From IMG/VR virus record IMGVR_UViG_2778261162_000006, positions 1 through 56,751 of that record: a stretch of 56,751 nt of DNA; one strand, given 5' to 3'. The position numbers were made by a program, and so were the translations under genes. Positions 8,635 through 54,870 of the stretch are shown here, one piece after another. Under the pieces are notes generated by a model. The model worked only from the letters and a program-made list of their open reading frames with translations. It did no database searches and had not been told where the DNA came from. Source of the stretch: a virus. Taxonomy: Duplodnaviria > Heunggongvirae > Uroviricota > Caudoviricetes. The first letter of the stretch is position 1. Every line of letters begins with the position of its first letter.

Positions 8635-8643
8635 AGGTCGGTC

Positions 8644-37095: not shown

Positions 37096-37509
37096 TTACT
37101 CGCCAACAGCCCACCAACAGTAATTCATGGTAACAGTTGGACTTGTCGAGGTTGTTCTAAAGGCAGAATAAAACCCTGTTAACCCTGGCTCTTCAGTTGT
37201 CATCATAAAACCACGACCACTCCCGGCAGTTGAACCACCATCACCAGAATGTGAAAGCAAGGCAATATCAGCTTTTTTAGGGAAAGGTATATTAAATTCT
37301 ACCCGTAGTGTCTGACTCGCAAGCGTAGGAGACACACGCCCACGACCATATTGCAGGATTTTCCCGTTGGGTAATTTCATCCATCCATCACCACTGGCAA
37401 AAGAGGCCATGTCCGGTATCTGATTCGCCCCTGTCCCTACATTCCTTTTAGCCGCTTCTCCCAAACCAACGTTTATGAAAATGCAGAAATAACGAGCAAA
37501 TGGCATCAT
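37096..37509 (-). CDS. Alternative tail fibre C-terminal segment (silent until inversion)
   Basis: Encodes [24 protein letters not shown], homologous to the junction of the expressed fibre; the N-terminal residues of the ORF lie beyond the crossover and are not part of it. Confidence 0.7.
37429..37479. repeat. Inversion crossover site, right
   Basis: Reverse complement contains GGTTTGGGAGAAGCGGCTAAAAGGAATGTAGG. Confidence 0.7.
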
Positions 37510-37535
37510 TCCTGCTTTTGTCAGGGGGATCTACC

Positions 37536-38090
37536 ATGCTTATTGGCTATGTACGTGTGTCAACAAATGACCAGAACACAGATCTACAGCGTAATGCGCT
37601 GAACTGTGCAGGATGCGAGCTGATTTTTGAAGACAAGATAAGCGGTACAAAGTCCGAAAGGCCGGGACTGAAAAAACTGCTCAGGACATTATCGGCAGGT
37701 GACACTCTGGTTGTCTGGAAGCTGGATCGGCTGGGACGTAGTATGCGGCATCTGGTCATTCTGGTTGAGGAGTTGCGCGAACGTGGCGTTAATTTTCGCA
37801 GCCTGACGGATGCTATTGATACCAGCACACCGATGGGGCGTTTTTTCTTTCATGTGATGGGTGCCCTGGCTGAAATGGAACGAGAACTGATTGTTGAACG
37901 AACAAAAGCTGGACTGGAAGCTGCTCGCGCACAGGGACGAATTGGTGGACGTCGTCCCAAACTTACACCAGAACAATGGGCGCAGGCCGGGCGATTAATT
38001 GCATCAGGCGTTCCTCGCCAGAAGGTGGCTATTATCTATGATGTTGGTGTGTCAACTTTGTATAAGAGGTTTCCAGCCAGGGTTATATAA
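37536..38090 (+). CDS. Serine DNA invertase (Hin/Gin/Pin/Cin family)
   Basis: MLIGYVRVSTNDQ with catalytic Ser; resolvase domain plus C-terminal HTH; adjacent to invertible segment. Confidence 0.9.
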   Translation: MLIGYVRVSTNDQNTDLQRNALNCAGCELIFEDKISGTKSERPGLKKLLRTLSAGDTLVVWKLDRLGRSMRHLVILVEELRERGVNFRSLTDAIDTSTPMGRFFFHVMGALAEMERELIVERTKAGLEAARAQGRIGGRRPKLTPEQWAQAGRLIASGVPRQKVAIIYDVGVSTLYKRFPARVI

Positions 38091-38433
38091 AACCGCAGAC
38101 ATGTCGTATGCAGGAGGTGTCGCGGTTGGCTGGTGAACTTTTGATAGTGCGAGTATTGAATGATTTCCAGCCGTTACTGATTTTACGCATTTTTGTATGA
38201 GAGGGTTTGCACCTCCTTCCACCGATTCTCCATGACTTTACGCCACTGTCTCTAGAACTGCTATGTGCCAACAGCAGACATTCATAGCACACAGTTTTGT
38301 TAACAACTAGAAATAAGTTTAGGAATAGTCGCGATATATCTATTAAAGATACAATCATTCAAATAAATGAGACATTTTCGGCATGCTGGGAAAAGTAATT
38401 AAAAATGGTGAAAGCCAATTTTTTTTTTATTAA

Positions 38434-38970
38434 TCAACTTTTAAACCATAAGTCATCTCGATAGAGTAGACTAATTTTCGTTGCATCTTTTGATGCTAGA
38501 GTCGTACACTCTCCTTTATCAAACTCATCTAGACTCACAAATGTAAATTCGTCACCATTTTTTTCTTTCGGAAACACCATAAAGACTACTTCGAAAGTAC
38601 AATCACTATACACATTTTTTAAGAATTGCTGAAGTGCTCTATACTTTCCTATTTCACAATCAGTAAGTGTAAAGGAGGTACACCCATCTGTTGAGTGATA
38701 CTTCGCATCTAAAAGAATATAAGAGGATTCGTCAGCGTCAATAATGAAATCGGGGCGTTTCCCCCCATATGATTTCAAGTTTGCAGATAAGGTATTTATT
38801 CCTTGCTCAACATGTTCAAATTTCCACTTGGATTTTTCCAGCCATCTACTAGCATATTTCTCACCATCTTGACCAGCCGTTATAGAGTATTGTTTTCTTA
38901 ATGCGCTGCACATTTCGTCTAAATTTAACATAAATTCCATGTTCCTTTTTTTTAGTATAATTATTAACAT
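38434..38970 (-). CDS. Small PD-(D/E)xK nuclease-like protein
   Basis: AT-rich; motif RPDFIIDADESSYILLDAKYH (PD ... D-A-K, 14-residue spacing). Confidence 0.6.
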   Translation of the reverse strand: MLIIILKKRNMEFMLNLDEMCSALRKQYSITAGQDGEKYASRWLEKSKWKFEHVEQGINTLSANLKSYGGKRPDFIIDADESSYILLDAKYHSTDGCTSFTLTDCEIGKYRALQQFLKNVYSDCTFEVVFMVFPKEKNGDEFTFVSLDEFDKGECTTLASKDATKISLLYRDDLWFKS

Positions 38971-39208
38971 CGGCAGTATTTAATAATTCTTTAAAAATAA
39001 ATTTTCAGGCTCATACCAATTATATCTTCAAGCATTATTATCAAGCATATTCGAGACCTCTGCAATTCGCTCACAGCGGATCTCGCCTAGCGAGCAGGTC
39101 TGCTCAGTGCCATAATTAGTCTCATCAGCAGACTATAGTTGTGCTCAATCGGAGACATGTGGCAAACATGAGGAACATTATGTCCGTCAAAGAGTTTTCG
39201 TAGCTTAG

Positions 39209-39424
39209 GCATTTCGATGCTGGCAACGGGTCAGTGTAACGCTTACTATATCGGTCCACTTTAGTCTTAAGGGTTCAATATGGCGTTGCACCTATTGTCC
39301 GCTGACCAAGAATCTTCGGGTGATTCAACTTCTGTTGGGTCATAAGAAACTGGAAAGCACATTCCGTTATCTGGGCATTGAAGTCGATGATGCGTTAGAG
39401 ATCTCTGAATCGATTGAAGTCTAA
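39209..39424 (+). pseudogene. C-terminal remnant of a tyrosine recombinase
   Basis: Frame encodes ...RVIQLLLGHKKLESTFRYLGIEVDDALEIS* (LLGH and catalytic Tyr box) with no upstream catalytic domains or start. Confidence 0.45.
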
Positions 39425-39530
39425 GGTTGTCAGGGCTGCAACAGCAGCCCTGTGCCAGGAGCAGACGTTAACGACCAAGCATTGGCGGCAATTGAGCTCA
39501 GCGCAATTGCCGTTCAAGTGCAACTCCGTT

Positions 39531-42284
39531 CTATTTGATTGCTGCATTGATTCGTTTATATCTTTGGGTAAAGGCCTCTTTGCCACCTTCCATCACTCGG
39601 CATATCTCATCGCGTATGGAAGGTTCTTGAAGACCCCCTTGCGCCACAATTCTGGTTTGACCAGACCGAATATCAAGGGCAATGACGTTTTCCGCGTCAC
39701 CATTCACGACGATGTTAGCGTTGTGCGTGACTACTAAAACCTGCCGTTTTTGTTTGATCTCACGCAATTGCGTCACGATAAGATCATAGATTAAGTGGTT
39801 ATCAAGATCATCCTCAGGCTGATCAAGTATAAGAGGCTCATTGCCATATGAAAGGATAAATGCAAGGAGAGCCGCCGTTTTTTGCCCCGGAGATCCTTGC
39901 TCTACGGGTTTGAAACTCTCGCCGTTCTTGAGGCTATATCTGATATCCAGAGAATCGCCTGGAAACCAGCACTGAATTCGATCTATCTGTTCCGGAGTTA
40001 GCCCCTGAATGAGGGATACAAAACGTCGATCTTTGCAGGATTCCACCGCCATAGTATCGTTTTCATGGATTGCAAGTAGCGATGATTTTATTTTCTCAAT
40101 TTTATCATCCATAGTATTGGATTGGTCTTGCGTTAAATAAGCCAGCAAGCCCTCATCCCCGTCAACAACTCCAATGTCGCGGTCAAATCCGCCACCACTG
40201 CGGCCGATCAGGTTACGGAATTCTTCCTCAACCGTAATCTTGTTTCCAAACGGAATGACATTGATCTGTACATATGAATTGCCGACGAGAGTATCCTTGA
40301 GAAAGTCCTCACGAAGTTTGGTTATCAATGCTCGATGCTCATGGAGTTTGACCAAGTATTCTTCCGCGCTCTTCTGATGCTGCGCAAGAGTTTCTCTCTT
40401 TTTGTCGAATCCCTTGAGCTTATCTTCGAAATCTTGTCGCTGCTTAACCAGAACACCATATGCAGATGGATCACCTGCGTCTGCTGCGCTGAGTTGACCG
40501 AGGAGGGCGTTGTATTCATGGCTCGCCGCTGTAATTCTTTTCGATATTCCCAAGTCTGATCGAGTTTGATTCCATGAGTTCTTCACATCATCAATCCGCT
40601 GCGCGATCGAGTTCATCTCTGTCTGAAGCTTCTCAAACGTCGCACGGATGTCCTTGATGGTATCGAAGAGTTCTTTGTCATCCGCATTCCCAATGTCGAA
40701 ATATTGTAAATCCAATTCTGCTGGCAGTAGGCTTCCAGAAATATCTCGGACCTGTTCGGCGGAATCCTCCCAAGTCGTTACCCAGGAGTCCATAGCCTTA
40801 CTCTGGTTCTGTCTGAGTTGGTAAGCCTTAAGGACATCCGCGTGGCCCGCCTTTTCAAAAACATCGAGTTTGCGTTTGACGTCTTCAAGCTGACCTTTGG
40901 TTACCGATTCTTCCTGAAGCCCAGCCTGAACTTCACGCTCTTGGGCGCGAAGCGAGAGATATTTGGAAACCAGTTCATCCCACTTAAGCTGCCAATCACG
41001 ATGATTGACCTCCGGGGCATCATCGACAACCTGCAAGAGTGCTTGGGGATGCTTTGCCAATTCGAATATCTGTTTCTGGCTGTAAATCCTGACAGGAAAT
41101 CGTTGTGCTATGTCTCCCTCGGAATCACACCAGACTCCGGGAGCGGTCTCTTCCTCGATGCTGTATATGTCGTCGGTATTAGACCAGGTGATTCGGAAAC
41201 GGCCACCGTCTTTTCGAAAGCCTACAGTTATTTTCGTGGAATCTTTTAACAGCCCTTCATCTTGGCGGTCTTTCGAAGTTTGACTGTATTTGGTAAATTC
41301 CTTTTCAAGGCTCTTGGGGATTTCTCCCTTTCGTTTAAGAGCAATCCGCAGGAATTCCAACGAAGTCGATTTCCCAGTGCCTCGTCCACCAATGATAGTG
41401 TTGAGCCAGGGGTTCAGTTGACAAGTTAAAGATTGCCCTCGTCCTAAGTACTTCGCATCATCAACCACGATACTTTCGATGGCAAGTTGTCCATGGATAT
41501 TTGGGTCACCAGTGAAGTTGTCCGACCGCTTCAGTGAAAGAGCCCCATCAACGAGCGCCAGCCGTAATCCGTCATAAGATGGCTCCGACATTTTTACCCA
41601 AGTGAAATGGCTACCCGGGTAGCGTTGATTTCCGGTACCGGACGGATGATGGGAATCGGTTCCAAGAATCTCTGCCCAATTCAAATTCTTGCCAATATAG
41701 AGCTGCGGTTTTGCTTTAGCAAGGTCCGTTACCTCCATAGCAAAAACACATTTGTTGTCAAGCACCTGCTCTAGTGTGTTGCCCGTACAGACCGTAAAAA
41801 GTCCGCTAGCCTGATCTACATGAGCAGGTATTGCAAGTCCTCCTGACCTAGCAATTTCGTCGATCACCTCAACTGCTGAGCATTCAGAGCAGCCGTCGCT
41901 CTTTCCTTTGGTGCCGCGATACCTGACCGCACCAAGCAGTGAGTCGATATCAGAGGTTGTCTTGTCTTCGCCGAAAATGGCCAGAATATGGATATTCCCC
42001 TGAACAGTAAGCTCAACACCTGGGAATAAGTAGAGTGGTCGATAATCTTCATGACTCTCAGATGCCAGTTCCTTGAGTGCCTGCTTGAGCGGATCAATCC
42101 AAGCGCCTGAATTATGGTCCGTGACAGCGACACAATCGATGCCTTGTCGCATGTAGTTGAGCAGCCAATCTTTATGAGTGATCTGCATATACTGGGCCTG
42201 ATTAGGGCCTTTTCCATAATCGTCCGATGCCGGAGTGTGATTATGGAAGTCGAATTTCCACCACCGAGAACCAATCCAGTTCAT
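39531..42284 (-). CDS. PHP phosphoesterase fused to SMC/Rad50-like ABC ATPase with coiled-coil (Ppl-like defence protein candidate)
   Basis: N-terminal FDFHNHTPASDDYG, VAVTDHN, IPAHV, GTDSHH PHP motifs; Walker A GGRGTGKST; signature-like SPGQKTAALLA; Walker B LILDQPEDDLD; H-loop VLVVTHN; long E/K/Q-rich insert between Walker A and B. Confidence 0.75.
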   Translation of the reverse strand: MNWIGSRWWKFDFHNHTPASDDYGKGPNQAQYMQITHKDWLLNYMRQGIDCVAVTDHNSGAWIDPLKQALKELASESHEDYRPLYLFPGVELTVQGNIHILAIFGEDKTTSDIDSLLGAVRYRGTKGKSDGCSECSAVEVIDEIARSGGLAIPAHVDQASGLFTVCTGNTLEQVLDNKCVFAMEVTDLAKAKPQLYIGKNLNWAEILGTDSHHPSGTGNQRYPGSHFTWVKMSEPSYDGLRLALVDGALSLKRSDNFTGDPNIHGQLAIESIVVDDAKYLGRGQSLTCQLNPWLNTIIGGRGTGKSTSLEFLRIALKRKGEIPKSLEKEFTKYSQTSKDRQDEGLLKDSTKITVGFRKDGGRFRITWSNTDDIYSIEEETAPGVWCDSEGDIAQRFPVRIYSQKQIFELAKHPQALLQVVDDAPEVNHRDWQLKWDELVSKYLSLRAQEREVQAGLQEESVTKGQLEDVKRKLDVFEKAGHADVLKAYQLRQNQSKAMDSWVTTWEDSAEQVRDISGSLLPAELDLQYFDIGNADDKELFDTIKDIRATFEKLQTEMNSIAQRIDDVKNSWNQTRSDLGISKRITAASHEYNALLGQLSAADAGDPSAYGVLVKQRQDFEDKLKGFDKKRETLAQHQKSAEEYLVKLHEHRALITKLREDFLKDTLVGNSYVQINVIPFGNKITVEEEFRNLIGRSGGGFDRDIGVVDGDEGLLAYLTQDQSNTMDDKIEKIKSSLLAIHENDTMAVESCKDRRFVSLIQGLTPEQIDRIQCWFPGDSLDIRYSLKNGESFKPVEQGSPGQKTAALLAFILSYGNEPLILDQPEDDLDNHLIYDLIVTQLREIKQKRQVLVVTHNANIVVNGDAENVIALDIRSGQTRIVAQGGLQEPSIRDEICRVMEGGKEAFTQRYKRINAAIK

Positions 42285-42646
42285 TTGTACCGTTCCTATT
42301 CTTTTTATTAGTGCGTCTGCGCGAGGTCGCTAACTTTGCAAACTAGATTACCTTGTAAGGTTGGAAAGTCCAACGTCCGCTGTTCGTCATAGCAGACATT
42401 CACTACAGTTATGGCAGAAAGGTATGCATGTTGAGGTGGGAAAGTCGTGAAAGAAAAGAAAACTGCTGCGCTGTTTGTCGTCACGTTTATCTTCATTGGC
42501 TATGCAAGTCATAATACAAGGTGGGACAAAACTGAGACACATAAGGCCTCACAATGGCTTGCAAGGCTTTACATGTTTTGATGTGGTGGGACGTGTGAGC
42601 GCAGTGTTGATGGGGTAATGCTTTGAATTAGAAGCGGATTCTTATA

Positions 42647-42694
42647 ATTCGTAATGCGAAGGTCGTAGGTTCGACTCCTATTATCGGCACCATT
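42647..42694 (+). repeat. attR core (copy of tRNA-Thr 3' end); also the tRNA-proximal att of the downstream satellite
   Basis: Identical 48 bp to 1399..1446. Confidence 0.85.
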
Positions 42695-42858
42695 CTAATG
42701 TCTCCCCAAGTCTACTCAAGTATTTAAAAACCTCTTATAATCCGCATGTTAGCGCCCCTTTTAGTCTTTTGACGTCTACTTAAGTACTCCAAAATCTACA
42801 GTCAATTGGGGGTACTTTTGGGGGTATTTGCTGTTCGGTTTAGTGGAGGTACCCCCAA

Positions 42859-44073
42859 GTGAAACTCAATGCCCGTCAAATAGACACTGCCAAGCCAAAA
42901 GAGAAGGCTTACAAGCTGGCTGATGGTGGTGGTCTGTATCTCTTGGTAAAACCTAGTGGAGGAAAATATTGGCGCTTCAAGTATCGTGTAGCTGGTAAAG
43001 AGAAGCTGTTAGCACTAGGTGTGTATCCTGAAGTTACCTTGGCTGATGCTCGTGCAAAACGTGAAGAAGCTAAAAGGGGTATCGCTGGGGGTATCGATCC
43101 GATGGAAGCGAAACGAGAGGAAAAGATTGCCCGGGAAACGCAGTTAAACAACACCTTCAAAGATATTGCCCTTGAGTGGCACAGCAGCAAATTAAAAAAA
43201 TGGTCTGCTGGTTATGCTTCAGACATCCTCGAAGCCTTTAACAAAGATGTGTTCCCTTACATTGGCAAAAAACCAATCGCCGAAATCAAACCACTTGAAC
43301 TGCTGAATGTGCTGCGGCGCATCGAGGGGCGCGGTGCTACCGAAAAAGCCAAAAAAGTGAGGCAGCGATGTGGGGAAGTTTTCCGCTATGCAATTGTCAC
43401 TGGACGTGCTGAGTATAACCCTGCACCGGATCTCACCAGCGCGATGCAAGGTCATGAATCTAATCATTATCCTTTCCTCACAGCCAAAGAATTACCTGAT
43501 TTTTTCAAGGCATTGTCCAGTTACTCAGGAAGTGCATTGGTTGTTATGGCGGCTCGTTTACTGATTATCACCGGTTTGCGGACTGGCGAACTGCGCGGTG
43601 CATTATGGGATGAAATCGATCTCAACAAGGCTATCTGGGAGATACCTGCTTCACGGATGAAAATGCGTCGCCCTCATGTAGTGCCTTTGTCTGAGCAGGC
43701 TCTTTCGCTTATTGGGCAGATTAAAGAACTAACTGGCAATTATCCGCTTATGTTTCCCGGCCGTAATGATCCAAGGAAAACAATGAGCGAGGCTAGCATA
43801 AACCAAGTATTTAAACGCATCGGCTATAACGGAAAGGTTACTGGTCATGGCTTCCGGCACACTATGAGCACCATTTTGCATGAGCAGGGCTATAACACCG
43901 CGTGGATAGAGACACAGCTTGCGCACGTCGATAAAAACTCAATTCGTGGCACATACAACCATGCGCAATATCTGGATGGGCGGCGGGAAATGCTTCAGTG
44001 GTACGCTGATTATATGGATTCGCTCGAGCATGGCGGAAATGTGGTGCATGGTGAGTTCGGAAAATGCGGGTGA
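42859..44073 (+). CDS. P4-type tyrosine integrase
   Basis: 404 aa; GTG start after GGAGG; GHGFRHT and catalytic Tyr region; N-terminal arm-binding domain. Confidence 0.9.
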   Translation: MKLNARQIDTAKPKEKAYKLADGGGLYLLVKPSGGKYWRFKYRVAGKEKLLALGVYPEVTLADARAKREEAKRGIAGGIDPMEAKREEKIARETQLNNTFKDIALEWHSSKLKKWSAGYASDILEAFNKDVFPYIGKKPIAEIKPLELLNVLRRIEGRGATEKAKKVRQRCGEVFRYAIVTGRAEYNPAPDLTSAMQGHESNHYPFLTAKELPDFFKALSSYSGSALVVMAARLLIITGLRTGELRGALWDEIDLNKAIWEIPASRMKMRRPHVVPLSEQALSLIGQIKELTGNYPLMFPGRNDPRKTMSEASINQVFKRIGYNGKVTGHGFRHTMSTILHEQGYNTAWIETQLAHVDKNSIRGTYNHAQYLDGRREMLQWYADYMDSLEHGGNVVHGEFGKCG

Positions 44074-44201
44074 CTGGTTGAGTATACAGTAGTAGACTTT
44101 GAGCGACGAAAGAAAAGGCTGTGTCTAGGGTCGCTCCCGAAAATCCGTACACCTCGACGGACTGGTACAGCCACTACAGTAGAGGACGCTGAGGTGTGCG
44201 T

Positions 44202-44999
44202 ATGATTGATATTCATGCCGAATTAAACGAATACAAAAAAGATTTTATTTCTTTACGTGAATTTCTTGAGGTCGTGCTTAAGGTCGCTGGTGATGATTAT
44301 GATGTTTCAGATGTCATAACTTGGATACTCAGGAGAATAAGCGGAGAACATATCCGCCTGTACACAGTAAATGAATTTAAGCTGTTGGAATCTTTTTGTA
44401 ACCCGTATCGGGATGAATTTGATAATGATGTTCTTTATAGAAATCTGAATGCGGTTCGGAAACGTGGTTGTTTACCTGGTGAGAGGGATGAAAATGGTTT
44501 TCTGGTGTCCGGTTATTGGGAAGATCCCGAATTTGAGAACATTGGATTTATAAGGGGTGAAATTTTCGCAATTTTTCCCGATGTCCTTGACGCGTTAACG
44601 AAGCTGGAAGGCGCTAACTCTTCTGAAAATGACGAGGCACAAGGACGCGATATTGAAAAGAAAGAGTTGCGTACAGAGGATGATTTATTATCCCAAATCG
44701 CAATGCTGGAAAAAGAAAACGCAGAGTTAAGGGCAAGGATAGAGCAGTTAGAGCAAGAGCGCCCGATACACTTATATAAATACTGGGATAAAGACCCATT
44801 AGCTAAGGCTATTGAGATTAGAAACAGAGAGTGGGCCAATTACGATCCAGAAAATGATTTTGCCACCAGGGGAAATCAAGAAGCGATAACCAGGGAGCTT
44901 AAGCAGTGGGGGGCAAGTAATGCACTTGCAACGCTCATAGAGAGGACTGCCTGCCCTATTAACCGAGACAACAGCCAAAAGAACGCAAAGCCGGATTAA
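44202..44999 (+). CDS. Hypothetical protein with central coiled-coil
   Basis: ORF; segment LLSQIAMLEKENAELRARIEQLEQE. Confidence 0.55.
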   Translation: MIDIHAELNEYKKDFISLREFLEVVLKVAGDDYDVSDVITWILRRISGEHIRLYTVNEFKLLESFCNPYRDEFDNDVLYRNLNAVRKRGCLPGERDENGFLVSGYWEDPEFENIGFIRGEIFAIFPDVLDALTKLEGANSSENDEAQGRDIEKKELRTEDDLLSQIAMLEKENAELRARIEQLEQERPIHLYKYWDKDPLAKAIEIRNREWANYDPENDFATRGNQEAITRELKQWGASNALATLIERTACPINRDNSQKNAKPD

Positions 45000-45013
45000 C
45001 GCACCATACCGCA

Positions 45014-45160
45014 TACCCTGAGGGTGATTTACTGTTACCCTGAGGGTATTTTTTTATCTTCCCCGTCAATTTTACCATCACCCTTAGGGTAGATTTCCTC
45101 CCGATTACCATCACCCTTAGGGTAGATTTCCTTCCGGTAACCATTAGGCCTGAGGGTATG
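45014..45160. repeat. Direct repeat array with CCCT(G/T)AGGG cores upstream of alpA
   Basis: TACCCTGAGGGT x2, TACCATCACCCTTAGGGTAGATTTCCT x2, CCTGAGGGTATG. Confidence 0.7.
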
Positions 45161-45226
45161 AAAATATTCGTTATTTCTGTGCCATGATTACCTCGTCAAA
45201 TTGAGTAGACGTTATGAGGTAAATAT

Positions 45227-45424
45227 ATGTCAAATACGCTTATTCGTTTAACAGAAGTTCAGCGTAGAACTGGATATAGCAAGGCATGGATTTATCGCCT
45301 TATGGGGCAAGGTAAATTTCCTGCATCAGTTAAAATTGGCTCGCGAGCTATTGCTTTCGTTGAGAGTGAAATTGACGAGTGGATTAATCAGCGTATTGCG
45401 GAATCACGCGGAACAGCTACCTGA
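45227..45424 (+). CDS. alpA: AlpA-family transcriptional regulator/excisionase
   Basis: 65 aa; LTEVQRRTGYSKAWIYRLMGQGKFP HTH typical of AlpA. Confidence 0.85.
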   Translation: MSNTLIRLTEVQRRTGYSKAWIYRLMGQGKFPASVKIGSRAIAFVESEIDEWINQRIAESRGTAT

Positions 45425-45501
45425 TTAAATGGCTACGGGGCTATTGCCCCCAGCTATCCACCAGCAAATAAAAGTAACTTAATTCGATAGCAGGAGTTTT
45501 T

Positions 45502-46302
45502 ATGAAATTTCCAAAAACGCCCGTACAGGGGCGGGGCTTCGTTCGGCCTGAAAACCAGAATCTGCAAAATTTCGGCGAAATTATCCCGGTTATTTCCGGC
45601 ATTATTGGCGGGTGTGAAACCAATATTGTTAGCGCCAGAGCGTTGCATAAGGCGTTAGGTGTAGGTCGCGTTTTCCGTTCGTGGATCAAGGGGCGCATTG
45701 AAGAATACGGCTTCACGGAAGGCGTGGATTATGAGGTTGTTGAATATTTGAGCCGACCCGATCCGGTGAGCGCAAAATCTCGCCAGCAAACAGCTCTTGA
45801 GTACATCATTACCGTGAACATGGCAAAAGAACTGGCGATGGTCGAACGCACCGAACAGGGCCGCGCCGTTCGCCAGTACTTCATCAAATGCGAGGAGGAG
45901 CTACACAAGGTAGCGCCAGTGCGTTCCGCAGCTTTACGCCGGGAACTGAAAGCCCGTATCACCGTTGCCAGCTACTTTAAGCCAATGTGTGCCGCGCTGG
46001 AGGCGTACCGGGCTGAACTGGGTAAAAACACGCTCCAGCACCATTACACCACGGAAGCCAATATGCTGGCGCGTATCGTGCTGGGTGGCATGACTGCAAA
46101 ACAGTGGGCGCAGGCGAACGGCATCACAGGCGAACCACGCGACCACATGAGCACATTGCAGCTTGAGCACCTTTCTTACCTTGAGCAGAGCAATATCACG
46201 CTGATTGAGTTAGGCCAGGACTACCACCAGCGGAAAGCTGAATTAATTCGTCTTTCGCAGCGTTGGTTAGCCCGTCGCATGGAGGAAAACAGCCATGTGT
46301 AA
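45502..46302 (+). CDS. Phage antirepressor (AntA/KilAC-like)
   Basis: 266 aa; recollection-based family match. Confidence 0.6.
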   Translation: MKFPKTPVQGRGFVRPENQNLQNFGEIIPVISGIIGGCETNIVSARALHKALGVGRVFRSWIKGRIEEYGFTEGVDYEVVEYLSRPDPVSAKSRQQTALEYIITVNMAKELAMVERTEQGRAVRQYFIKCEEELHKVAPVRSAALRRELKARITVASYFKPMCAALEAYRAELGKNTLQHHYTTEANMLARIVLGGMTAKQWAQANGITGEPRDHMSTLQLEHLSYLEQSNITLIELGQDYHQRKAELIRLSQRWLARRMEENSHV

Positions 46303-46968
46303 CGCTCTGACCGTTACAAAAAGAGAAAGCGCCCCGTTGCCGGAGCGCCTTTGTGAACAAATCGCTTACTGCGCCATATTGTTTACTGCCTTTCGGGCAG
46401 ATTATAGCGTTGTGGTCGCACAGAGTGAAGGCGCTGATCACTGTTACTACAGTACGCCAGAAATGCAGAATATTTTGCTGCAAAATGCCGTTAGCCACGC
46501 TGTCCGGAAAGCAAAAAATTTTGCTGGTGGCGCGACTGATGCGATTTTGTCAGGTCACCAGGTGCTGATCAATCTGATGTCTGATTTCGTTCTGGATAAA
46601 ACAAAGGCGACTGCAGAGGGCCACCAGTGGGAAAGCTACACACTTGAACACATTGCCAACAATGCCAGATTTGCGGCTGGTGGGCAATGTGATCAGTGTG
46701 CTGGCTTGCTGGTGGGCTATTCATGCTCTTTAACATTGCCATGCCGCGATGTTTTCCAGGTATGCGATCCCATTTTTGTGCGCCTGTACTCTTTAAGGAA
46801 TTGCTCAAGGGCAAAAGCACATGGCGCGAATCTTTCTGATTCATGCTCTATCTTTCTGCGCCGTCTTTTCCGTGCCGGTGATGGTGTATTGGTTGATTCT
46901 TTGTTGGTCATTCTGTGTACCTGTAAAGCAATGCGCCGGAGTTCCTCACACCACGGCGATGATAGTTA

Positions 46969-47274
46969 TTATTCTGATTCTTTGGCCTTGCGGCGCTGGA
47001 GTTCTTCACGTGCGACGGTGACGAGCTGCCCGATCTCCTCGGCAGCTTTGACTCCGATTTTTTCCACCTGCGCCAGCGCATCGAGCGAAGAAACTAGGGG
47101 ATTTTCTCCGCTTCCTTCTGCCTGGCGGCGGGCGATCTCACCGCGCATGGCGGTTACTATGAATCCGGCGTTGCTTTCACCGTCCAGTTTTACGGATTCC
47201 ATGCCTTCAAAAGCATCATGTGGGATACGAATTGAAATCTGTTTTGATTTGTCGTTGATAGTGTTTTTTGCCAT
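46969..47274 (-). CDS. Hypothetical regulator-like protein (101 aa)
   Basis: ATG after GGAG; divergent from 47462 gene across operator-bearing intergenic region. Confidence 0.55.
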   Translation of the reverse strand: MAKNTINDKSKQISIRIPHDAFEGMESVKLDGESNAGFIVTAMRGEIARRQAEGSGENPLVSSLDALAQVEKIGVKAAEEIGQLVTVAREELQRRKAKESE

Positions 47275-47294
47275 GTGCATTCTCCTAAACAAAA

Positions 47295-47375
47295 GATGTG
47301 ATTCAGTATACACAAAAAAGAATCACAAAAAATACTTGACCTGTGATTCAGTTAAATTTAATTTAAATCACACCT
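47295..47375. promoter_or_regulatory. Operator-like sites in divergent promoter region
   Basis: TGTGATTCAG x2 direct, GAATCACA and AAATCACAC inverted. Confidence 0.55.
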
Positions 47376-47461
47376 CAGTAAGAGGATGTAAACGACAACG
47401 CCCCGAACTGTTTGCGGCAGTAGCGGGGCGTCTAACCAAACCGTTAAATGAGGTAACGATT

Positions 47462-47827
47462 ATGGCTGGAACACAGCATACCCAAACTCACCCTAAATTT
47501 ATATACACCTTCCTGGCGGTGCACCGTGATTGCATAGCTGACGGTAAAAACACTGTACACGTAGCTGCTGATACGCTGGTTGATGCCTGCGAGATGCTCA
47601 ATGACATGGGCTATATCTCGGCAACATGGAAAGGGCGCGAAGAAAACACGCTGTTTATTCAGAAATGCGAGAACAATTTTATCTGGCGTTTTATCGCCCT
47701 GAGCACAGCACAACCGCGCGTAATTCACATCGAGGCCACCAGCGAACAGGAAGCACGCCAGCAATCCCCTGATGGCTGCGTGATGGTATTCGCTGCCCGT
47801 ATTCGCCAGGAGGTGGAGCATGTGTAA
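47462..47827 (+). CDS. Hypothetical protein (121 aa)
   Basis: ATG after GAGGTAACG; part of the long composite ORF 46295..47827. Confidence 0.55.
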   Translation: MAGTQHTQTHPKFIYTFLAVHRDCIADGKNTVHVAADTLVDACEMLNDMGYISATWKGREENTLFIQKCENNFIWRFIALSTAQPRVIHIEATSEQEARQQSPDGCVMVFAARIRQEVEHV

Positions 47828-48044
47828 TGTAACATGGCCTGATGCAGCGGTAGACGCTATCAAAACGCTGATGGATTCACTTATTGAGATTTCAGCTATC
47901 GCTGGTGTGGCGCATAAACACGCAGTCAGAGAATCAGAATGCATCTCCCATTATTTAGCATTTGTGCAGCTAAAAGCCGATCAGGCACTGGATAAGGCCG
48001 GAAAAATTATCATGGCTGATGTGCAGGAGGTGCACCATGCATAA
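47820..48044 (+). CDS. Small hypothetical protein (74 aa)
   Basis: ORF, overlapping junctions in an operon of small genes. Confidence 0.4.
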   Translation: MCNVTWPDAAVDAIKTLMDSLIEISAIAGVAHKHAVRESECISHYLAFVQLKADQALDKAGKIIMADVQEVHHA

Positions 48045-48402
48045 TTCGGCTATTTCTGAACTTAACAGCATTCAGTTTGATGAGAAATTTACCGGGCAGC
48101 TACTGGTCAATGTAGAGAATGGACGCGTAGTAAGTAATTATCACCTGCCGGATGGTGCAATTGCCGGAAGCGTTGAAGCATTCCTGGCACTGGCGGAGCG
48201 TGCGCGACTGATTAAGCCGTCAACGTGCCATCACGATGATGATCTGCGTTTTACCGGGTGTATGGTGAGTCACTACGAAAACGGCGTTGAAGTATCCCGC
48301 GAACGTCTGTGTGATGATTACTGTTTCGGCACATTGCCGGAATTTATCGAATTGCTGACCAGTTGCGGTTATCAGGTCATTCAGGGGGGGAAACATGCGT
48401 GA
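48037..48402 (+). CDS. Hypothetical protein
   Basis: ORF; N-terminus paralogous to 48621..48821. Confidence 0.5.
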   Translation: MHNSAISELNSIQFDEKFTGQLLVNVENGRVVSNYHLPDGAIAGSVEAFLALAERARLIKPSTCHHDDDLRFTGCMVSHYENGVEVSRERLCDDYCFGTLPEFIELLTSCGYQVIQGGKHA

Positions 48403-48628
48403 TGATCGTTTTAATTCCCTGAAACGGGAATTTGATGGCGCACCGGAAGATGCAGCGGGCGCATTGTTGAGCGTTGCTGACATGATGAAAGCTGCATATT
48501 TTCTTATCAATACCAGTGGCTACAAGTCAGAGGGTGAAATGATTCTTAGTATTGCGTCGGACTATGCGGAATATGTGGCAGAGACGCGTTACAGAAGAAA
48601 ATTCACGGAGGATGTAAGCCATGCATAA
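48395..48628 (+). CDS. Small hypothetical protein (77 aa)
   Basis: ORF with overlapping junctions. Confidence 0.45.
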   Translation: MRDDRFNSLKREFDGAPEDAAGALLSVADMMKAAYFLINTSGYKSEGEMILSIASDYAEYVAETRYRRKFTEDVSHA

Positions 48629-48821
48629 TCATGAAGCGCATGTACCCGTAGTGCTTAATGTGCCAGATGATTTCACCGGACGCGTACTGGTTTACCTGGA
48701 TAAAGGGAAAGTGAAATCACAATGCCGATTGAAAAGTAATGAGATTGTTGGTTCTCCTGAATTTTTTTCTGAACTTTGTATTCGTGCGGAAATAAAACCG
48801 GAACTGCTGACAGGAAAATAA
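48621..48821 (+). CDS. Small hypothetical protein (66 aa), paralog of 48037 N-terminus
   Basis: MHNHEAHVPVVLNVPDDFTGRVLVYLDKGKV vs MHNSAISELNSIQFDEKFTGQLLVNVENGRV. Confidence 0.45.
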   Translation: MHNHEAHVPVVLNVPDDFTGRVLVYLDKGKVKSQCRLKSNEIVGSPEFFSELCIRAEIKPELLTGK

Positions 48822-48825
48822 AACC

Positions 48826-49116
48826 ATGAAAAAGAAAAATTCTGGCTTTACTGCCAGCGGCCTCTCTCGGCCTGAAATCCGCCCCGGTGATATTTTCCGG
48901 GACACCAGACGCGGGGGACGGGTGGTTATTCGTCACGTTATGCCAGGCAATATCACCTACCGCCGTGAGGCTTACGAATATGACTGCGTAATGCCGCGCC
49001 GTCAGTTTGAGCGTGATTTTATTCTGGTTGAAAACAAACAACAGGCGGTGGCGAGACGTGCAGCCACGAATATTAAAAAAATCCGGGCAATGTTGGTTGC
49101 GGGAGGTAAGAAGTGA
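48826..49116 (+). CDS. Hypothetical basic protein (96 aa)
   Basis: ORF upstream of primase. Confidence 0.5.
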   Translation: MKKKNSGFTASGLSRPEIRPGDIFRDTRRGGRVVIRHVMPGNITYRREAYEYDCVMPRRQFERDFILVENKQQAVARRAATNIKKIRAMLVAGGKK

Positions 49117-50885
49117 AAAACGCACCGAATTTAAAATATCAGCCGAAGGATAAATTCACCGAGGTAATCATTTTTGCCGGGACGGACGCTTACTCCCATG
49201 CTCAACACTGGATTGAAAGCGAAGGACGAAAACACGGCGATAACGTACCACCTGTTTACCTGGGGCCAAAGCAACTGGCAGACCTGGTGAATATCCGCAT
49301 TGTCGACGATGAACGCCGCTTTGCGCGTGTCTATCTCGCGGGGGAGATCGAACCAATCCAGATCAATGCTATCGCTGAAAAACTGGCGCTGGCTGGCGTA
49401 CAGGAGGCGAAATTATACAAAGGCATCACCGACCGGGAACCGGAGAACTGGCGCGATTACCTGCAACGGATCCGCGAACAGGCAGAGCGCGGGGATATTC
49501 TGTCAGGAAGGACTGAGAAAAAACACAAAATCTCTCTTTCCAGAATGGCGGATAACGAGCGAGCTTCACTTTTGGCTGAATGCTTTGAGGAAATAGCTGT
49601 TCACCCTGGTAACAATTTTGCTTATGCATACTGTTCTGGAGTGTGGGAAAAAATATCTGATATGGAGTTGAGTCGTAAAATGGTATCAATTTACGAAAAA
49701 AACAAGACAAATTTCAGTAAGCGGGCAATTAGTAATGCGGTTGATGCTTTAAAAATATCTGTACCCGTAATGAGAGAACAGAGTGACACCATAATACCTT
49801 TTGAAAATGGAGTTTATGACATAACAAGTGGTAGATTTTTACCTCATTCACCAGAGCACTGGATCACTTCGCATAATGGAATTTATTATACGCCACCTGC
49901 GCCTGGTGAAAATATTCATGACCATGCGCCCCATTTTCATCGTTGGCTGTCACATGCAGCAGGATACGATTCATCAAAGATGAAGCGGATATGTGCTGCT
50001 CTGTTTATGGTTTTGGCTAATCGCTACGACTGGCAATTATTCATTGAAGCAACTGGCGAAGGTGGAAGTGGTAAAAGTATGTTTACTCAAATTGCCAGAA
50101 TGTTGGCGGGTGAGCAGAACACCGCAGGCAGTGATATGAAAGCGTTAGATGATGCTGGTGGACGTGAGCAACTAGTTGGTAAAAGTCTGATTATTTTACC
50201 GGACCAACCTAAATATTTTGGTGAAGGTAATGGTATTAAAGCTATAACAGGTGGGGATCCTCTGCAAATCAACCCGAAATATGAAAAAAGATACACCACT
50301 GTCTTACGCTCAGTTGTTTTGATAACAAATAATAAACCGATGGTTTTTACAGAAAGAGCGGGAGGTATTTCACGCCGTAGGGTTATTTTTCAGTTCAATA
50401 ATCCGATAGCGGAAGAAAACAAGGACACATGTTTACCCAAAAAAATTGCAGCGGAAATTCCGGTAATAGTCCGTAGGCTGTTGGTAAATTTTTCAGATCC
50501 CGAAAAAGCAAGAACATTACTGCTCGAACAACGTGATGGTGAAGAAGCAATGGAAGTAAAACGCCATACTGATCCGCTATATGCTTTTTGTAACCATATT
50601 GTCGAACTTGGTGAAGCTGTAGGAATGTTCATGGGAAACCTGAATATATATCCAAGAGCCCCTCGAATTTATCTTTACCATGCATATCTTGCATATATGG
50701 ATGCTTATGGTTTCGATAAGCCATTAAATCTAACTAATTTTGGCAAAGATTTCCCAAAAGTGATGAAAGAATATGGGGCTGAGTATAAGAAGGCAAAGAC
50801 CAATGTCGGAATGCGCTACAACATGGAGCTGGCTGACAGTGCTAATGAATGGTTACCCGCTGTGCCAAAAATCCATGAAAAGTGA
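49113..50885 (+). CDS. P4 alpha-like primase/helicase
   Basis: 590 aa; GTG start after GGGAGGT; Walker A EATGEGGSGKSM; followed by iteron-rich origin. Confidence 0.75.
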   Translation: MKNAPNLKYQPKDKFTEVIIFAGTDAYSHAQHWIESEGRKHGDNVPPVYLGPKQLADLVNIRIVDDERRFARVYLAGEIEPIQINAIAEKLALAGVQEAKLYKGITDREPENWRDYLQRIREQAERGDILSGRTEKKHKISLSRMADNERASLLAECFEEIAVHPGNNFAYAYCSGVWEKISDMELSRKMVSIYEKNKTNFSKRAISNAVDALKISVPVMREQSDTIIPFENGVYDITSGRFLPHSPEHWITSHNGIYYTPPAPGENIHDHAPHFHRWLSHAAGYDSSKMKRICAALFMVLANRYDWQLFIEATGEGGSGKSMFTQIARMLAGEQNTAGSDMKALDDAGGREQLVGKSLIILPDQPKYFGEGNGIKAITGGDPLQINPKYEKRYTTVLRSVVLITNNKPMVFTERAGGISRRRVIFQFNNPIAEENKDTCLPKKIAAEIPVIVRRLLVNFSDPEKARTLLLEQRDGEEAMEVKRHTDPLYAFCNHIVELGEAVGMFMGNLNIYPRAPRIYLYHAYLAYMDAYGFDKPLNLTNFGKDFPKVMKEYGAEYKKAKTNVGMRYNMELADSANEWLPAVPKIHEK

Positions 50886-51165
50886 ACAGTGGTGAACAGT
50901 GGTGAACAGTAGTGTTCACCTCTAAAAGCTGCGTCATTACTGGATTCATCGACGAAATGAACGCCGTGAACAGTTTCGGCTAAAACTTTTAAAACGCATT
51001 GTAACTTGTAACAGTGAATCATTTTCACTGCAAATTAAATTCTATAGGGGGTAACTGTTCAACTGTTCACTGAAACAAAATAACCATATGATTTTAAACT
51101 AAAAAACATAGTGAACAGTTATTAAAAAACTGTTCACTAACTATTCACGACTGTTCACAATCAAA
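50881..51165. repeat. Origin-like iteron cluster (P4 ori/crr-like)
   Basis: GTGAACAGT x3 tandem, GTGTTCACC, and many further TGAACAGT/ACTGTTCA copies. Confidence 0.7.
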
Positions 51166-51233
51166 ATGGAATAGTGTGAATAATTGGAATTTTTATCACG
51201 AAATTATAGAAATAGAGTTGCAAAGGGGGGGGT

Positions 51234-51581
51234 ATGTTTCTTGAAGCTATACCCAAAAATATTTCGCCAGCGGTTCAGGGTTGGTGGGCAAAATTCAGGA
51301 ATGATAATGGCAACGACTGGTATAGTCCGATTGCAGCATGGGCGATTTGTGATGTGTTTTATTCTGGTGATTCAGAAATTTATTCTGAAATATTACCGAT
51401 TCTTACTGGTGAGTATGGAATGGCACCGTATCATCAGGAAGATGGTTTTTACGAATGCATGTATTTGCCAAACACAAAATTCATTCTTTCTGATGAACCT
51501 GGATCATTTGCGTGGTATCCGGTAGATGAAAGTGCCGGGCATGAAACAATCAGTAAAAACGATGGGGCAAAGCATGACTAA
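51234..51581 (+). CDS. Hypothetical protein (115 aa)
   Basis: ORF with ATG after G-rich RBS. Confidence 0.5.
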   Translation: MFLEAIPKNISPAVQGWWAKFRNDNGNDWYSPIAAWAICDVFYSGDSEIYSEILPILTGEYGMAPYHQEDGFYECMYLPNTKFILSDEPGSFAWYPVDESAGHETISKNDGAKHD

Positions 51582-52104
51582 GCTGACCATTAACAGAAAA
51601 CCGAAAGGCATTTACGGCACGCCGCAGAAAACGACGCAGGCGGCACAGGAGCAGGATAAAACCACGTCGGCGCATAAAGTGATGCCCGGTAACCAGAAAG
51701 CGCAGCAGAAGCCCACAGGGGCGACACCGTGGCGGCATATGACCAAGCGCCAGCGCAAAAACCGCAGGCGCATTAACCGCCTCACTGAGTTGTGGCCTGA
51801 ATTATTCAGCCGGGAAGCACCGAAGCCGCTTAAGGTGGGGATATTCGACGACCTGATGCAGGATCTCGCCGTCAGGGGGCTGGCATTCGGTCCAGGGGCA
51901 TTGCGTGCGACGCTGGCATCTTATGCACAGTGTCCGCGCTATTACCGCGCCTTAATGGCTGGTGGGGTACGCTACGACCTGAAAGGCCAGCCGTGCGGCG
52001 AGGTGACACCACAGGAACAACAGGACGCAGAAACGCGGCTGGTGGCGCTGAATGAGAAGCGCAAACGTCAGCGCCGGGTAGCAAAGGAGAAAACAGGCGC
52101 ATGA
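51574..52104 (+). CDS. ProQ/FinO-family RNA-binding protein
   Basis: RRRINRLTELWPELF...PKPLKVGIFDDL...ALRATLASYAQCPRYYRAL matches the FinO-domain pattern. Confidence 0.7.
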   Translation: MTKLTINRKPKGIYGTPQKTTQAAQEQDKTTSAHKVMPGNQKAQQKPTGATPWRHMTKRQRKNRRRINRLTELWPELFSREAPKPLKVGIFDDLMQDLAVRGLAFGPGALRATLASYAQCPRYYRALMAGGVRYDLKGQPCGEVTPQEQQDAETRLVALNEKRKRQRRVAKEKTGA

Positions 52105-52388
52105 TTCACGACAGCAAAGCGGAAGCACTGGAAGCGCGTGGCCTGTACCGGAGAGCGGCGGCGCGGTGGGCTGAGGTCATCATGCTGGCGAATGATGACA
52201 AGGCACGGGAACAGGCGGCAAAACGTCGCGCGGAATGTATCCGCAAGGCAGCACGCCCACCAGCACGGCAGGATAATTTCGGGGAGATGCGCGAAACCAT
52301 CAGCCGGGCACATGCCGGGATGGGATTACATCAGCCCAATGGTAAGGCATTCAGGAAATACCCTGGATCGAAAAATTGCAGTCAGTGA
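52101..52388 (+). CDS. PerC-family transcriptional regulator
   Basis: EALEARGLYRRAAARWAEV signature. Confidence 0.7.
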   Translation: MIHDSKAEALEARGLYRRAAARWAEVIMLANDDKAREQAAKRRAECIRKAARPPARQDNFGEMRETISRAHAGMGLHQPNGKAFRKYPGSKNCSQ

Positions 52389-52802
52389 CGGAGGCCGGGA
52401 TTTTTCCCGGCTTTTTTGTGCCAGTAAAAAGCCCGCAGCCAGAAGTGTTGCGGGCTTTGTTTTTCAGGTGATTGAAGTCAATGGGAAGAACGCGATCATC
52501 ATGCGTTATCGTTTCATAAATTGCAATGATGTAGATCGTCATTTCAGTTTATGCAATCATAACCATTGTTTTGTTCAGGAGATATGACTATGAGAAAAGC
52601 CAGCGTGAAACCCGTTTTACTCGCTCGTGATCAGATTGAAGCATTACAGCGCATCCAGGACGAGGAACGCCGCAATTCTCCGCTGGGGATTGCTCCGAGC
52701 ATTCATGAGGTCGCCCGGCGTTTAATGCAGCGGGCGCTTTATCCCGTAGAACGTCCGGCCTGATGGTCGTGATTTTTTGGTGAAAAAAGAGAGGTGGTAA
52801 AA

Positions 52803-53381
52803 ATGCCAGCAAGCAAAGAAGATTTGCGATTAAAACTGATGGAGGTGGTTAACGCTCTGTCAGAGTCGCAGGGAAGCACTCCGCAGGAGATTATCGAAAT
52901 TCTGAATGCGATCCCCGCACAGGATTTCATAAAAGAGGATAACGCGAATCAAAACATCGTCGCGTCAGTCGAAGATGAATCCTCACTGGCAGAAGCCCAG
53001 GCTAAAGCGGATTCCGCATACAGCAATATGGGCCGTCGCGCTCCGGCCCCGTTTGCTGGTGAAAAGTCGATGGATTACCGCAAACGTGCATTAATTGGCG
53101 CACAGAAGCTGGCTAAAAAATTCAGTGATGTGGATATTCGTTCCGTTTCAGATTCTGCAACGCTGGCGGTGCTGGAAGATCAGATTTACAAGGCTGCTCA
53201 GGAAAGTGCTCAGTGGGCCGTGGAAAACACGCCGGGCCATTTGGGTAAAACCGTAAGAATGGATGAAGCCGGTCGTCGTATTACTGAATATCAAGGAGAT
53301 CCGAACGTCTGGCTGAACGCCTTCAAAATCCCTCCCCGTCGCCTGGTCAAAATTAACGTTGCAAGCCTCGCGGGGGCATGA
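52803..53381 (+). CDS. Hypothetical protein (possible capsid-remodelling/late protein)
   Basis: ATG after GAGGTGG; position in distal late-like region. Confidence 0.5.
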   Translation: MPASKEDLRLKLMEVVNALSESQGSTPQEIIEILNAIPAQDFIKEDNANQNIVASVEDESSLAEAQAKADSAYSNMGRRAPAPFAGEKSMDYRKRALIGAQKLAKKFSDVDIRSVSDSATLAVLEDQIYKAAQESAQWAVENTPGHLGKTVRMDEAGRRITEYQGDPNVWLNAFKIPPRRLVKINVASLAGA

Positions 53382-53445
53382 AAAACGTGCTGAGTTCAGC
53401 CCTGCCGGATTTGGCGGGGCTTATTGCTTATAACCGGATAACATT

Positions 53446-54117: not shown

Positions 54118-54123
54118 GTCATA

Positions 54124-54651: not shown

Positions 54652-54655
54652 CATC

Positions 54656-54870
54656 AAAAAGTGTCAAGTTGAGCAGCTTGCCAGGTTGACACTTTACACT
54701 CTGAACGCGAAAAAGTGTCAACCTCGCTGTAAGCCCCGCCATTACTGGGTTTGTGCCAGATTTACCACGTCAAAAAGCCGAAAAAATCGCGAAAAGTGTC
54801 AAGTTGCTATGCTTAGAAATGCTAAGGTTTGATAAGGTTTTTCGCGAAAAAGTGTCAAGTGTGTCAACCG
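54656..54870. repeat. Array of AAAAGTGTCAA repeats with inverted TTGACACTT partner
   Basis: At least four direct copies at ~50-80 bp spacing and one perfect 10-bp inverted pair separated by 20 bp. Confidence 0.7.

Follow-up and report, generated by a model that had tools for sequence, protein, structure and literature searches.

The locus considered here raises a simple question: is the small nuclease-like gene that sits beside a Ppl gene, near the right end of a prophage, a partner of that gene, or does it travel, and possibly work, by itself? The window, namely the whole 56,751-nucleotide stretch of DNA that was analysed (positions 1 to 56,751 of the IMG/VR virus record IMGVR_UViG_2778261162_000006, Caudoviricetes), carries the gene on its minus strand at 38434..38931. 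An earlier note, made from the letters of the window, had described a 178-aa open reading frame (ORF) with a PD-(D/E)xK arrangement, and had considered it either a partner of the neighbouring PHP-ATPase, i.e. Ppl, or an independent single-gene cargo. Here, I show that the gene is a self-standing module of about 0.85 kb, that it belongs to a family with a conserved active site and a predicted PD-(D/E)xK fold, and that it has no obligate linkage to Ppl; the contexts in which the family is found suggest that it may serve as single-gene anti-phage cargo.

The features of the gene and of its flanks are the following.

38434..38931, minus strand: nuclease-like coding sequence (CDS) of 165 aa, the coordinates including the stop codon; based on the family-consensus start, the invariant residues and the predicted fold
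38860-38862 (E24), 38749-38751 (D61), 38707-38709 (D75) and 38701-38703 (K77), minus strand: catalytic codons, read from the sequence
38932..38970, minus strand: 13 extra codons of the mechanically called 178-aa ORF, probably untranslated, which overlap a conserved promoter-like and Shine-Dalgarno region (AAAAAAGGAA)
38932..39100, minus strand: conserved 5' flank of ~170 nt with TATAAT-like and TATACT elements, presumed to be the gene's own promoter and leader; homology to five contexts ends at 39057-39116
38262..38433, minus strand: conserved 3' flank of ~170 nt; homology to the loci L031, L009, L012 and L026 ends at 38260-38294

The minus-strand ORF at 38434..38970 is present in the ORF list and, on reading the sequence, encodes RPDFIIDADESSYILLDAKYH; it is AT-rich as claimed, the GC content of the gene being 0.359, against 0.512 in the prophage body and 0.475 in the Ppl gene. 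Its length of 178 aa did not stand. Translation almost certainly begins at Met14 (ATG at 38931), which removes 13 codons and leaves 165 aa, since 33 of 34 homologues begin at that residue, the RefSeq CDS begins at the same position, and the upstream alignment of five contexts agrees with both. In that aligned DNA the ATG at 38931 is the sole conserved one and is preceded by the conserved AAAAAAGGAA; the two ATGs further upstream are absent from other contexts or are followed there by a stop codon (a TAA after one of them in L026).

The second element of the earlier description, a PD...(D/E)xK arrangement with a spacing of 14 residues, was correct as to the spacing (D61 to D75, in the numbering of the 165-aa protein, used from here on) and the residues proved to be conserved, yet the motif by itself is at chance level. 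The regular expression PD-x(8-25)-[DE]xK matches seven of the 108 ORFs of at least 100 aa in the window, as well as 3.8% of shuffled versions of the nuclease protein. It is conservation and fold, not the bare motif, that make the nuclease assignment real.

Conservation was read from an alignment of 97 sequences, extending down to ~20% identity. E24, D61 and K77 are its sole invariant columns, and conservation reaches at least 90% at G20, K58, R59, P60 and D75; the family is thus most constrained in its catalytic tetrad. In the close subfamily, the invariant positions include E24, K58, R59, D61, D75 and K77, together with a P121-K122-E123 motif. The AlphaFold2 monomer model (pLDDT 88.4, pTM 0.83) displays the alpha-beta-beta-beta-alpha-beta core of the PD-(D/E)xK superfamily, and the positions of E24, D61 and D75/K77 fit its elements H16-33, E62-67 and E70-79; in Foldseek comparisons with PDB and BFVD, Hjc and viral Holliday-junction resolvases rank top. 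The predicted structure has, with very little room for doubt, the nuclease fold of the restriction-endonuclease type that the earlier note had expected. That the protein is catalytically active, cleaving in a metal-dependent manner, is in turn quite probable.

Searches with sequences and profiles are in keeping with a divergent family. In the library scans no Pfam, NCBIfam or PADLOC model covers the protein; zero families were returned by PADLOC-DB v2.0.0, the models of which cover no systems described after 2023. The weak matches, scattered over the protein and the 97 relatives, all point to PD-(D/E)xK families, namely RmuC, NERD, HSDR_N, DpnII, PDDEXK_7, VRR_NUC and the McrC active site. The Pfam match to RmuC (PF02646) is below threshold, at 15.4 bits against a cut-off of 26, and the same family is reached at E<=0.01 by five of the 97 relatives (best 7.9e-5). 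The PDB sequence search with the single protein and two profiles returned nothing significant, the McrC active site coming closest (E 0.085-0.17), and the Hjc profile is matched neither by the protein (E<=1) nor by any of the 97 relatives (E<=0.01). PHROG 28481 matches over its full length (E 2.8e-76, ORF residues 14-176 against profile positions 1-163 of 165) and is annotated as 'unknown function'. Domain fusions among 150 representatives included none that was informative; one candidate, P0123, with nine matched stretches, was rejected as a repetitive protein.

Is the gene, then, a unit by itself? DNA homology to five unrelated contexts, the homologues of which are 92-75% identical, spans only ~38260-39116 of the window: this is the ORF with ~170 nt upstream and ~170 nt downstream, it ends at the boundary of the E. 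coli slot, and across the five contexts the conservation of the non-coding flanks is roughly that of the coding part. The best proof that the gene is autonomous comes from V. cholerae, where the homologue P0037 is the sole ORF of a 681-bp integron cassette between attC/VCR repeats (L016; VCR repeats at 7848-7968 and 8529-8649, ORF at 8001-8525, integron integrase upstream); the window copy is without attC. The gene is an independent single-gene module of ~0.85 kb, and of the two possibilities raised by the earlier note, that of an independent single-gene cargo is borne out by these two observations.

The cassette holds no second conserved ORF, no tandem repeats and no Rfam element. A 33-codon ORF opposite the 3' flank is broken by a stop in the aligned sequence of the Rahnella copy (L009), and the 3' flank has no conserved RNA structure on either strand and no Rfam match; the promoter and terminator scan gave counts not above the shuffled background, with no terminator-like site in the 3' flank. 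The neighbours within 4 kb were compared all against all across 16 loci, and no gene adjacent to the nuclease recurred; what does recur within that distance is umuDC (three contexts) and a mobilisation protein (three related elements). Two multi-gene candidates were tried and rejected: (i) a toxin-antitoxin module, for the conserved second ORF, the tandem repeats and the Rfam match are all missing from the cassette, although an antisense RNA that escapes recognition may exist, and (ii) a type II restriction-modification (R-M) system, for there is no methyltransferase in the window slot, a single ORF in the V. cholerae cassette and no recurrent partner. A Mod/Res pair occurs in the Acinetobacter context only, and is a complete type III system by itself.

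The family is small and scattered. It amounts to 38 clusters of relatives in a database of 5.8 billion proteins, nearly all of 160-185 aa and all labelled 'hypothetical'; an exhaustive profile search of 1.84 billion representatives yielded 239 matches at E<=1e-3, 85 of them at E<=1e-10. The gene is found in 16 of 5,426 complete E. coli genomes, the window copy being intact and identical to copies in many isolates. By tblastn, 50,697 deposited phage genomes gave no match and 72,556 plasmids gave one, which turns out to be an excised prophage deposited as a 'plasmid'. Because it is absent from those phage genomes and present in so few of the E. coli genomes, the gene is cargo and not a core phage function; its low GC content (0.36 against 0.51 in the prophage) also counts for that status. 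The family accessions are mentioned in no paper found by the literature search, which found no Hjc-like stand-alone defence either, and the supplements of DefensePredictor and the integron-cassette screen contain neither the conserved peptides nor the accessions.

About 15 distinct contexts were distinguished. In at least six of the 15 the gene directly adjoins known defence genes, and most are sites at which mobile elements carry cargo.

E. coli, as in the window: Ppl as neighbour
e14-like prophage of E. coli and Shigella: gene located between intE and icd, with a Septu-like PtuA ATPase and an HNH nuclease as neighbours
Mobilizable element: preceded immediately by Shedu SduA and a 248-aa protein
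Related mobilizable elements of Acinetobacter (L021) and of a metagenome contig (L037): flanked by a type III Mod/Res pair on one side and an AAA_13 ATPase on the other
Viral contig, pseudogene copy: beside AbiV
Integron array of V. cholerae: HNH cassette adjacent
Metagenomic contig: 613-aa reverse transcriptase as neighbour
Further contigs: DUF3800 and DUF4238 proteins as neighbours
P2-like prophage of Rahnella: gpV-gpS slot, shared with a 329-aa protein
Enterobacter: P2 remnant, adjacent to its ogr gene
Citrobacter: end of a prophage, where SRAP, umuDC and dinI also occur
One further context: ankyrin and umuDC neighbours
Pseudoalteromonas: umuDC nearby
Halomonas: frameshifted copy, next to a transposase

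The 329-aa protein of Rahnella (L009 6844-7833) is co-oriented with the nuclease gene; it has a weak match to DUF3226 and no PADLOC match, and was seen in no other context.

In the window, the gene shares a stretch of prophage with the following features.

1369-1444: tRNA-Thr(CGU) gene, with its repeated 3' part at 1399-1444
37500..38090, plus strand: Pin/Gin-type serine invertase (Resolvase 1e-51 and HTH_7; pinE in RefSeq relatives), the left border of the cargo hotspot
39305..39424, plus strand: remnant of a small tyrosine recombinase, of which the last 39 codons are left (tblastn, 97% identity to residues 162-200 of a 200-aa protein of E. coli CS18F)
39531..42284, minus strand: Ppl, a 917-aa PHP-ATPase and TrlF-family or Ppl-like single-gene defence protein, outside the nuclease module
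~39451-42397: Ppl module, its borders taken from plasmid, Klebsiella and Salmonella copies
42647-42692, plus strand: attR, where 46 nt from the 3' part of tRNA-Thr(CGU) are repeated without mismatch, the right border of both the prophage and the cargo hotspot

The tRNA-Thr gene and the 46-nt repeat bracket a 41.2-kb prophage (1445-42692), which consists of an integrase (1459-2622), phage morphogenesis genes and an invertible tail-fibre region, followed by the pin invertase. The excised circle of a close relative has been deposited in GenBank as a 'plasmid' (CP085522.1, 41,492 bp, circular and error-rich); it joins window position 42694 to 1399 across a core of 46-48 bp. Since this circle carries pin, the nuclease gene, the recombinase remnant and Ppl, the nuclease and Ppl genes are both prophage cargo between pin and attR.

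This pin-to-attR stretch is a hotspot of cargo exchange: in other E. coli strains, which hold DUF4365, HEPN or DUF4145 genes in the very same slot, the flanks 38103-38279 and 39305-39468 and the tRNA fragment (42400-42700) enclose different cargo (L002, L041 and L042). In strain GF3-3 it is a 208-aa protein with a DUF4365 protein, the latter possibly related to the integron system 'Divona'; in MS6192, a HEPN protein; and in CS18F, an intact 200-aa recombinase, a 331-aa protein and a DUF4145 protein. The intact CS18F recombinase matches Phage_integrase at 2.9e-18, and its remnant, which separates the nuclease and Ppl modules in the window, is kept in loci with other cargo; this small recombinase may once have mobilised the cassettes of the hotspot.

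Two observations concern the surroundings of the hotspot. Just beyond the Citrobacter cassette (L012 8640-8702) lies the 3' part of a tRNA-like sequence (GGAGGTTCAAATCCTCTCGTTCCGACCA), uncalled by ARAGORN, and a degenerate look-alike of it at the equivalent place of the window (~38190-38240) suggests an old attachment-site remnant beside pin. On the other side, a second integrative element follows in tandem (window 42693-56751), with a P4-like integrase (42859-44073, plus strand) directly after the second tRNA copy, an ORF of AlpA size (45227-45424) and other genes; its bin 55001-56000, at 33% GC, may be another cargo region.

What would such a module do in a lysogen? According to the favoured explanation, the protein would be a metal-dependent PD-(D/E)xK endonuclease of 165 aa, made of a minimal Hjc-like core and of a C-terminal, beta-rich extension of ~40 residues, with E24, D61, D75 and K77 as its catalytic residues; by analogy with its closest structural matches, it would probably be a homodimer. 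The accessory module, composed of the ORF and its own conserved flanks and carried in the pin-attR hotspot of the 41-kb prophage at tRNA-Thr, would be self-contained: the nuclease would be expressed in the lysogen from its own promoter, would act without the adjacent Ppl, and would limit incoming phage or other mobile DNA, thereby providing a single-gene defence of the lysogen. Because there is no sensor domain, methyltransferase or immunity gene, the discrimination between self and foreign would have to reside in the substrate, which might be branched or unusual DNA structures, as for Hjc and RecU, or modified phage DNA, as for type IV enzymes; alternatively, it would reside in a tight control of expression. 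Judged by the genomic contexts, a role in defence has somewhat better than even odds, and the whole explanation, stand-alone nuclease and single-gene anti-phage cargo taken together, about an even chance.

Several points weigh against this explanation. It is from genomic context that a phage-resistance phenotype would be read, and the contexts are not uniform: there is no recognisable defence neighbour in Pseudoalteromonas, Citrobacter, Enterobacter or the P2-like slot of Rahnella, and PADLOC v2, applied to the 97 relatives, gave five single-member matches at chance level and nothing else. Three contexts that are otherwise unrelated have umuD/umuC homologues at a distance of 1.2-2 kb from the nuclease gene (Citrobacter, L012 9523-11183; a metagenome contig, L034 11679-13429; Pseudoalteromonas, L020 12075-13732), a proximity that hints at an association with repair or the SOS response. 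Two of the ~15 contexts carry inactivated copies, one with a nonsense codon at position 39 (L027 10001-10498, adjoining AbiV on the viral contig) and one with a frameshift (L022 9887-10455, beside a DDE transposase in Halomonas). A constitutively active nuclease with neither a regulator nor an immunity gene should be toxic. The likeness to Hjc is at the level of the predicted fold, so that a substrate preference is not to be read from Hjc. Lastly, the nuclease gene may be co-transcribed with Ppl, because what follows Ppl is a pair of non-canonical hairpins: both are GC-rich and located just downstream of the Ppl stop codon (39437-39515, minus strand; -45 kcal/mol for 106 nt, z = -3.0), they lack a U-tract, and the second stands at the border of the Ppl module.

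Some of these points are what one would look for if the protein were an accessory of DNA repair or recombination, i.e. a resolvase of Holliday junctions or branched DNA comparable to Hjc, RecU or RusA, serving the element or an SOS-stressed host. Its best structural matches are precisely Hjc, RecU and the Holliday-junction resolvases of archaeal viruses; to the umuDC neighbours can be added SRAP and dinI in Citrobacter; and a specificity for branched DNA would explain why no immunity gene is needed. The distribution of the gene tells a different story, for it lies outside replication and recombination modules, in variable slots at the ends of elements, in an integron cassette and in mobilizable elements, it is missing from more than 99% of E. 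coli genomes as well as from the phage genomes searched, and unrelated cargo fills its slot in the same prophage family. Furthermore, there is no relation to the Hjc, RecU or RusA families at the level of sequence, and umuDC is itself common cargo of mobile elements. A resolvase is accordingly regarded as unlikely, albeit worth keeping in mind.

The sharp boundaries of the conserved flanks around the ORF, found in many unrelated sites, the patchy and rare distribution and the existence of pseudogene copies would also be compatible with a selfish nuclease, either a free-standing enzyme of the homing type or a post-segregational 'addiction' nuclease, which spreads or stabilises its own cassette without benefit to the host. 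Free-standing homing endonucleases are typical of lytic phages, and in the 50,697 phage genomes the gene was not found; its insertion sites share no recognisable target gene and are generic slots, among them the ends of prophages, an attC array and mobilizable elements. As for addiction, the cassette contains no antitoxin ORF, tandem-repeat RNA or Rfam element, and it is IntI, not the nuclease, that mobilises the integron cassette. A selfish element of either type appears distinctly improbable.

There remains the neighbour. Ppl is recognised by PADLOC (Ppl, 2.3e-157) and by NCBIfam (TrlF_fam_ATP, 651 bits against a cut-off of 350; Ppl_antiphage, 631 bits, below the cut-off of 1000). It has been reviewed as a single-gene exonuclease defence system that requires 3'-OH ends made by nucleases, and this requirement is the basis for a two-gene system in which the small nuclease would cut or nick incoming DNA, generating the 3'-OH ends that activate the 3'-5' exonuclease of Ppl. 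The two genes are indeed on the same strand, 600 bp apart, the 560 bp between Ppl and the 178-aa ORF holding the plus-strand recombinase remnant (39305-39424) just as the earlier note had it, and there is no canonical terminator between the genes. Moreover, the block of Ppl, remnant and nuclease gene is intact, at 99-100% identity, in 13 of the 13 complete E. coli genomes that carry it, and also wherever the identical Ppl allele was examined in E. coli, at differing chromosomal sites and with pin or an acyltransferase adjacent.

An intact block is, however, what tight linkage in one recent lineage would give, and outside that lineage the two genes part company. Ppl occurs within 8-10 kb only of nuclease copies at least 99% identical, which constitute one E. 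coli block; in the ~14 other contexts, with homologues 92-38% identical, no Ppl is found within this distance. Conversely, Ppl alleles 96-98% identical are present in three other loci, namely a plasmid of E. coli (with a type II R-M system adjacent), a lambdoid prophage of Klebsiella and a Salmonella island, in none of which the nuclease-family profile finds anything. The homology of these loci to the window stops at the exact module border: the plasmid and Klebsiella copies share 39451-42397, and the Salmonella copy shares 39308-42386, so that the recombinase remnant (window 39305-39450; L054 7833-7977) travels with Ppl. The two families also differ more than 100-fold in size (more than 5,206 clusters for TrlF/Ppl, 38 for the nuclease), the remnant between the genes runs on the opposite strand, and Ppl protects as a single gene according to the literature. 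The nuclease is thus very probably independent of Ppl, and the partnership with the PHP-ATPase, the other possibility put forward by the earlier note, is to be given up as very unlikely; some functional interplay may nonetheless exist within the E. coli block. Concerning Ppl itself, a single-protein scan of viral contigs retrieved identical copies only, and Proteus, Acidithiobacillus, Dethiosulfovibrio and Sphaerochaeta have TrlF/Ppl proteins that share 83-85% identity with that of E. coli (P0311, P0320, P0322 and P0328), a similarity that points to a very recent transfer between phyla.

The weakest alternative, a degenerate, non-catalytic relic without current function, finds some encouragement in the inactivated copies of two of the ~15 contexts and in the rarity of the family, and can hardly be credited given that the catalytic residues are the most conserved positions down to ~20% identity, that nearly all members keep a length of 160-185 aa, and that the window copy is intact and has identical counterparts in many isolates.

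Single-gene anti-phage cargo thus stays the favoured explanation. It can be pushed further, with the gene ranking among the smallest anti-phage systems that are self-sufficient: a bare, structure-specific nuclease akin to Hjc would do without sensor, modification enzyme and partner because it would attack only branched or unusual replication and recombination intermediates, or the ends, of invading DNA, and in the E. coli block it could in addition feed 3'-OH ends to Ppl, two independent cassettes becoming synergistic. This extension is speculative and its probability is low.

If the gene is protective, it would represent a very compact defence nuclease, with 165 aa in ~0.85 kb including control regions, and a minimal model of how a nuclease having neither a sensor domain nor a modification partner spares the genome of its host. 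If it is not, an uncharacterised mobile PD-(D/E)xK family is still delineated, with a confident structural model and defined catalytic residues. In either case, the locus documents, for a family of tRNA-Thr prophages, a modular hotspot at the attR end, in which the cassettes of the nuclease, Ppl, DUF4365, HEPN and DUF4145 are swapped.

With regard to known systems, the closest likeness in fold is to archaeal Hjc (PDB 2wcw, 1gef, 1ob8 and 1hh1), at 9-14% identity and TM 0.45-0.6. Unlike Hjc, the nuclease is bacterial, is cargo of mobile elements and matches no Hjc profile; it also has ~40 extra C-terminal residues with four predicted beta-strands, an insertion of 20 residues before the PD strand, which bears the invariant Q43, K58 and R59, and a subfamily-specific FPKE motif. 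The only echoes at the level of sequence are McrC and RmuC (PF02646), neither of them significant. In the nuclease domain of McrC, from McrBC (PDB 6ut5), the segment sqkPDYvv...vvvLDAKY aligns with (G)KRPDF..x..lDAKY of the nuclease, without the McrB-like GTPase partner; RmuC scores 15 bits against 26, and its coiled-coil N-terminus is missing from the nuclease. The PD-(D/E)xK homing endonuclease I-Ssp6803I (PDB 2ost) is 13% identical, whereas the nuclease lies in neither an intron nor an intein and its sites have no target in common. With Ppl / TrlF it shares the prophage hotspot, the strand and the quality of nuclease or putative nuclease; the proteins are unrelated, and Ppl moves without the nuclease gene.

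In lifestyle, the nearest counterparts are Shedu SduA and the integron systems Damona, Divona and Epona, likewise short stand-alone nuclease genes of hotspots or Vibrio integron cassettes, and of the same PD-(D/E)xK superfamily. In Pfam terms, the nuclease has no DUF6602, DUF4365, Mrr_cat or DUF4263 domain, and compared with Shedu (about 390 aa) it is much smaller and devoid of an extra sensor or clamp domain. Short nuclease cassettes from Vibrio chromosomal integrons have recently been shown to defend, and many PD-(D/E)xK single genes have been validated in E. coli. Since PD-(D/E)xK genes are already very common in defence islands, specialists would be little surprised by one more: the nuclease described here belongs to a well-populated kind, that of stand-alone nuclease cargo in defence hotspots.

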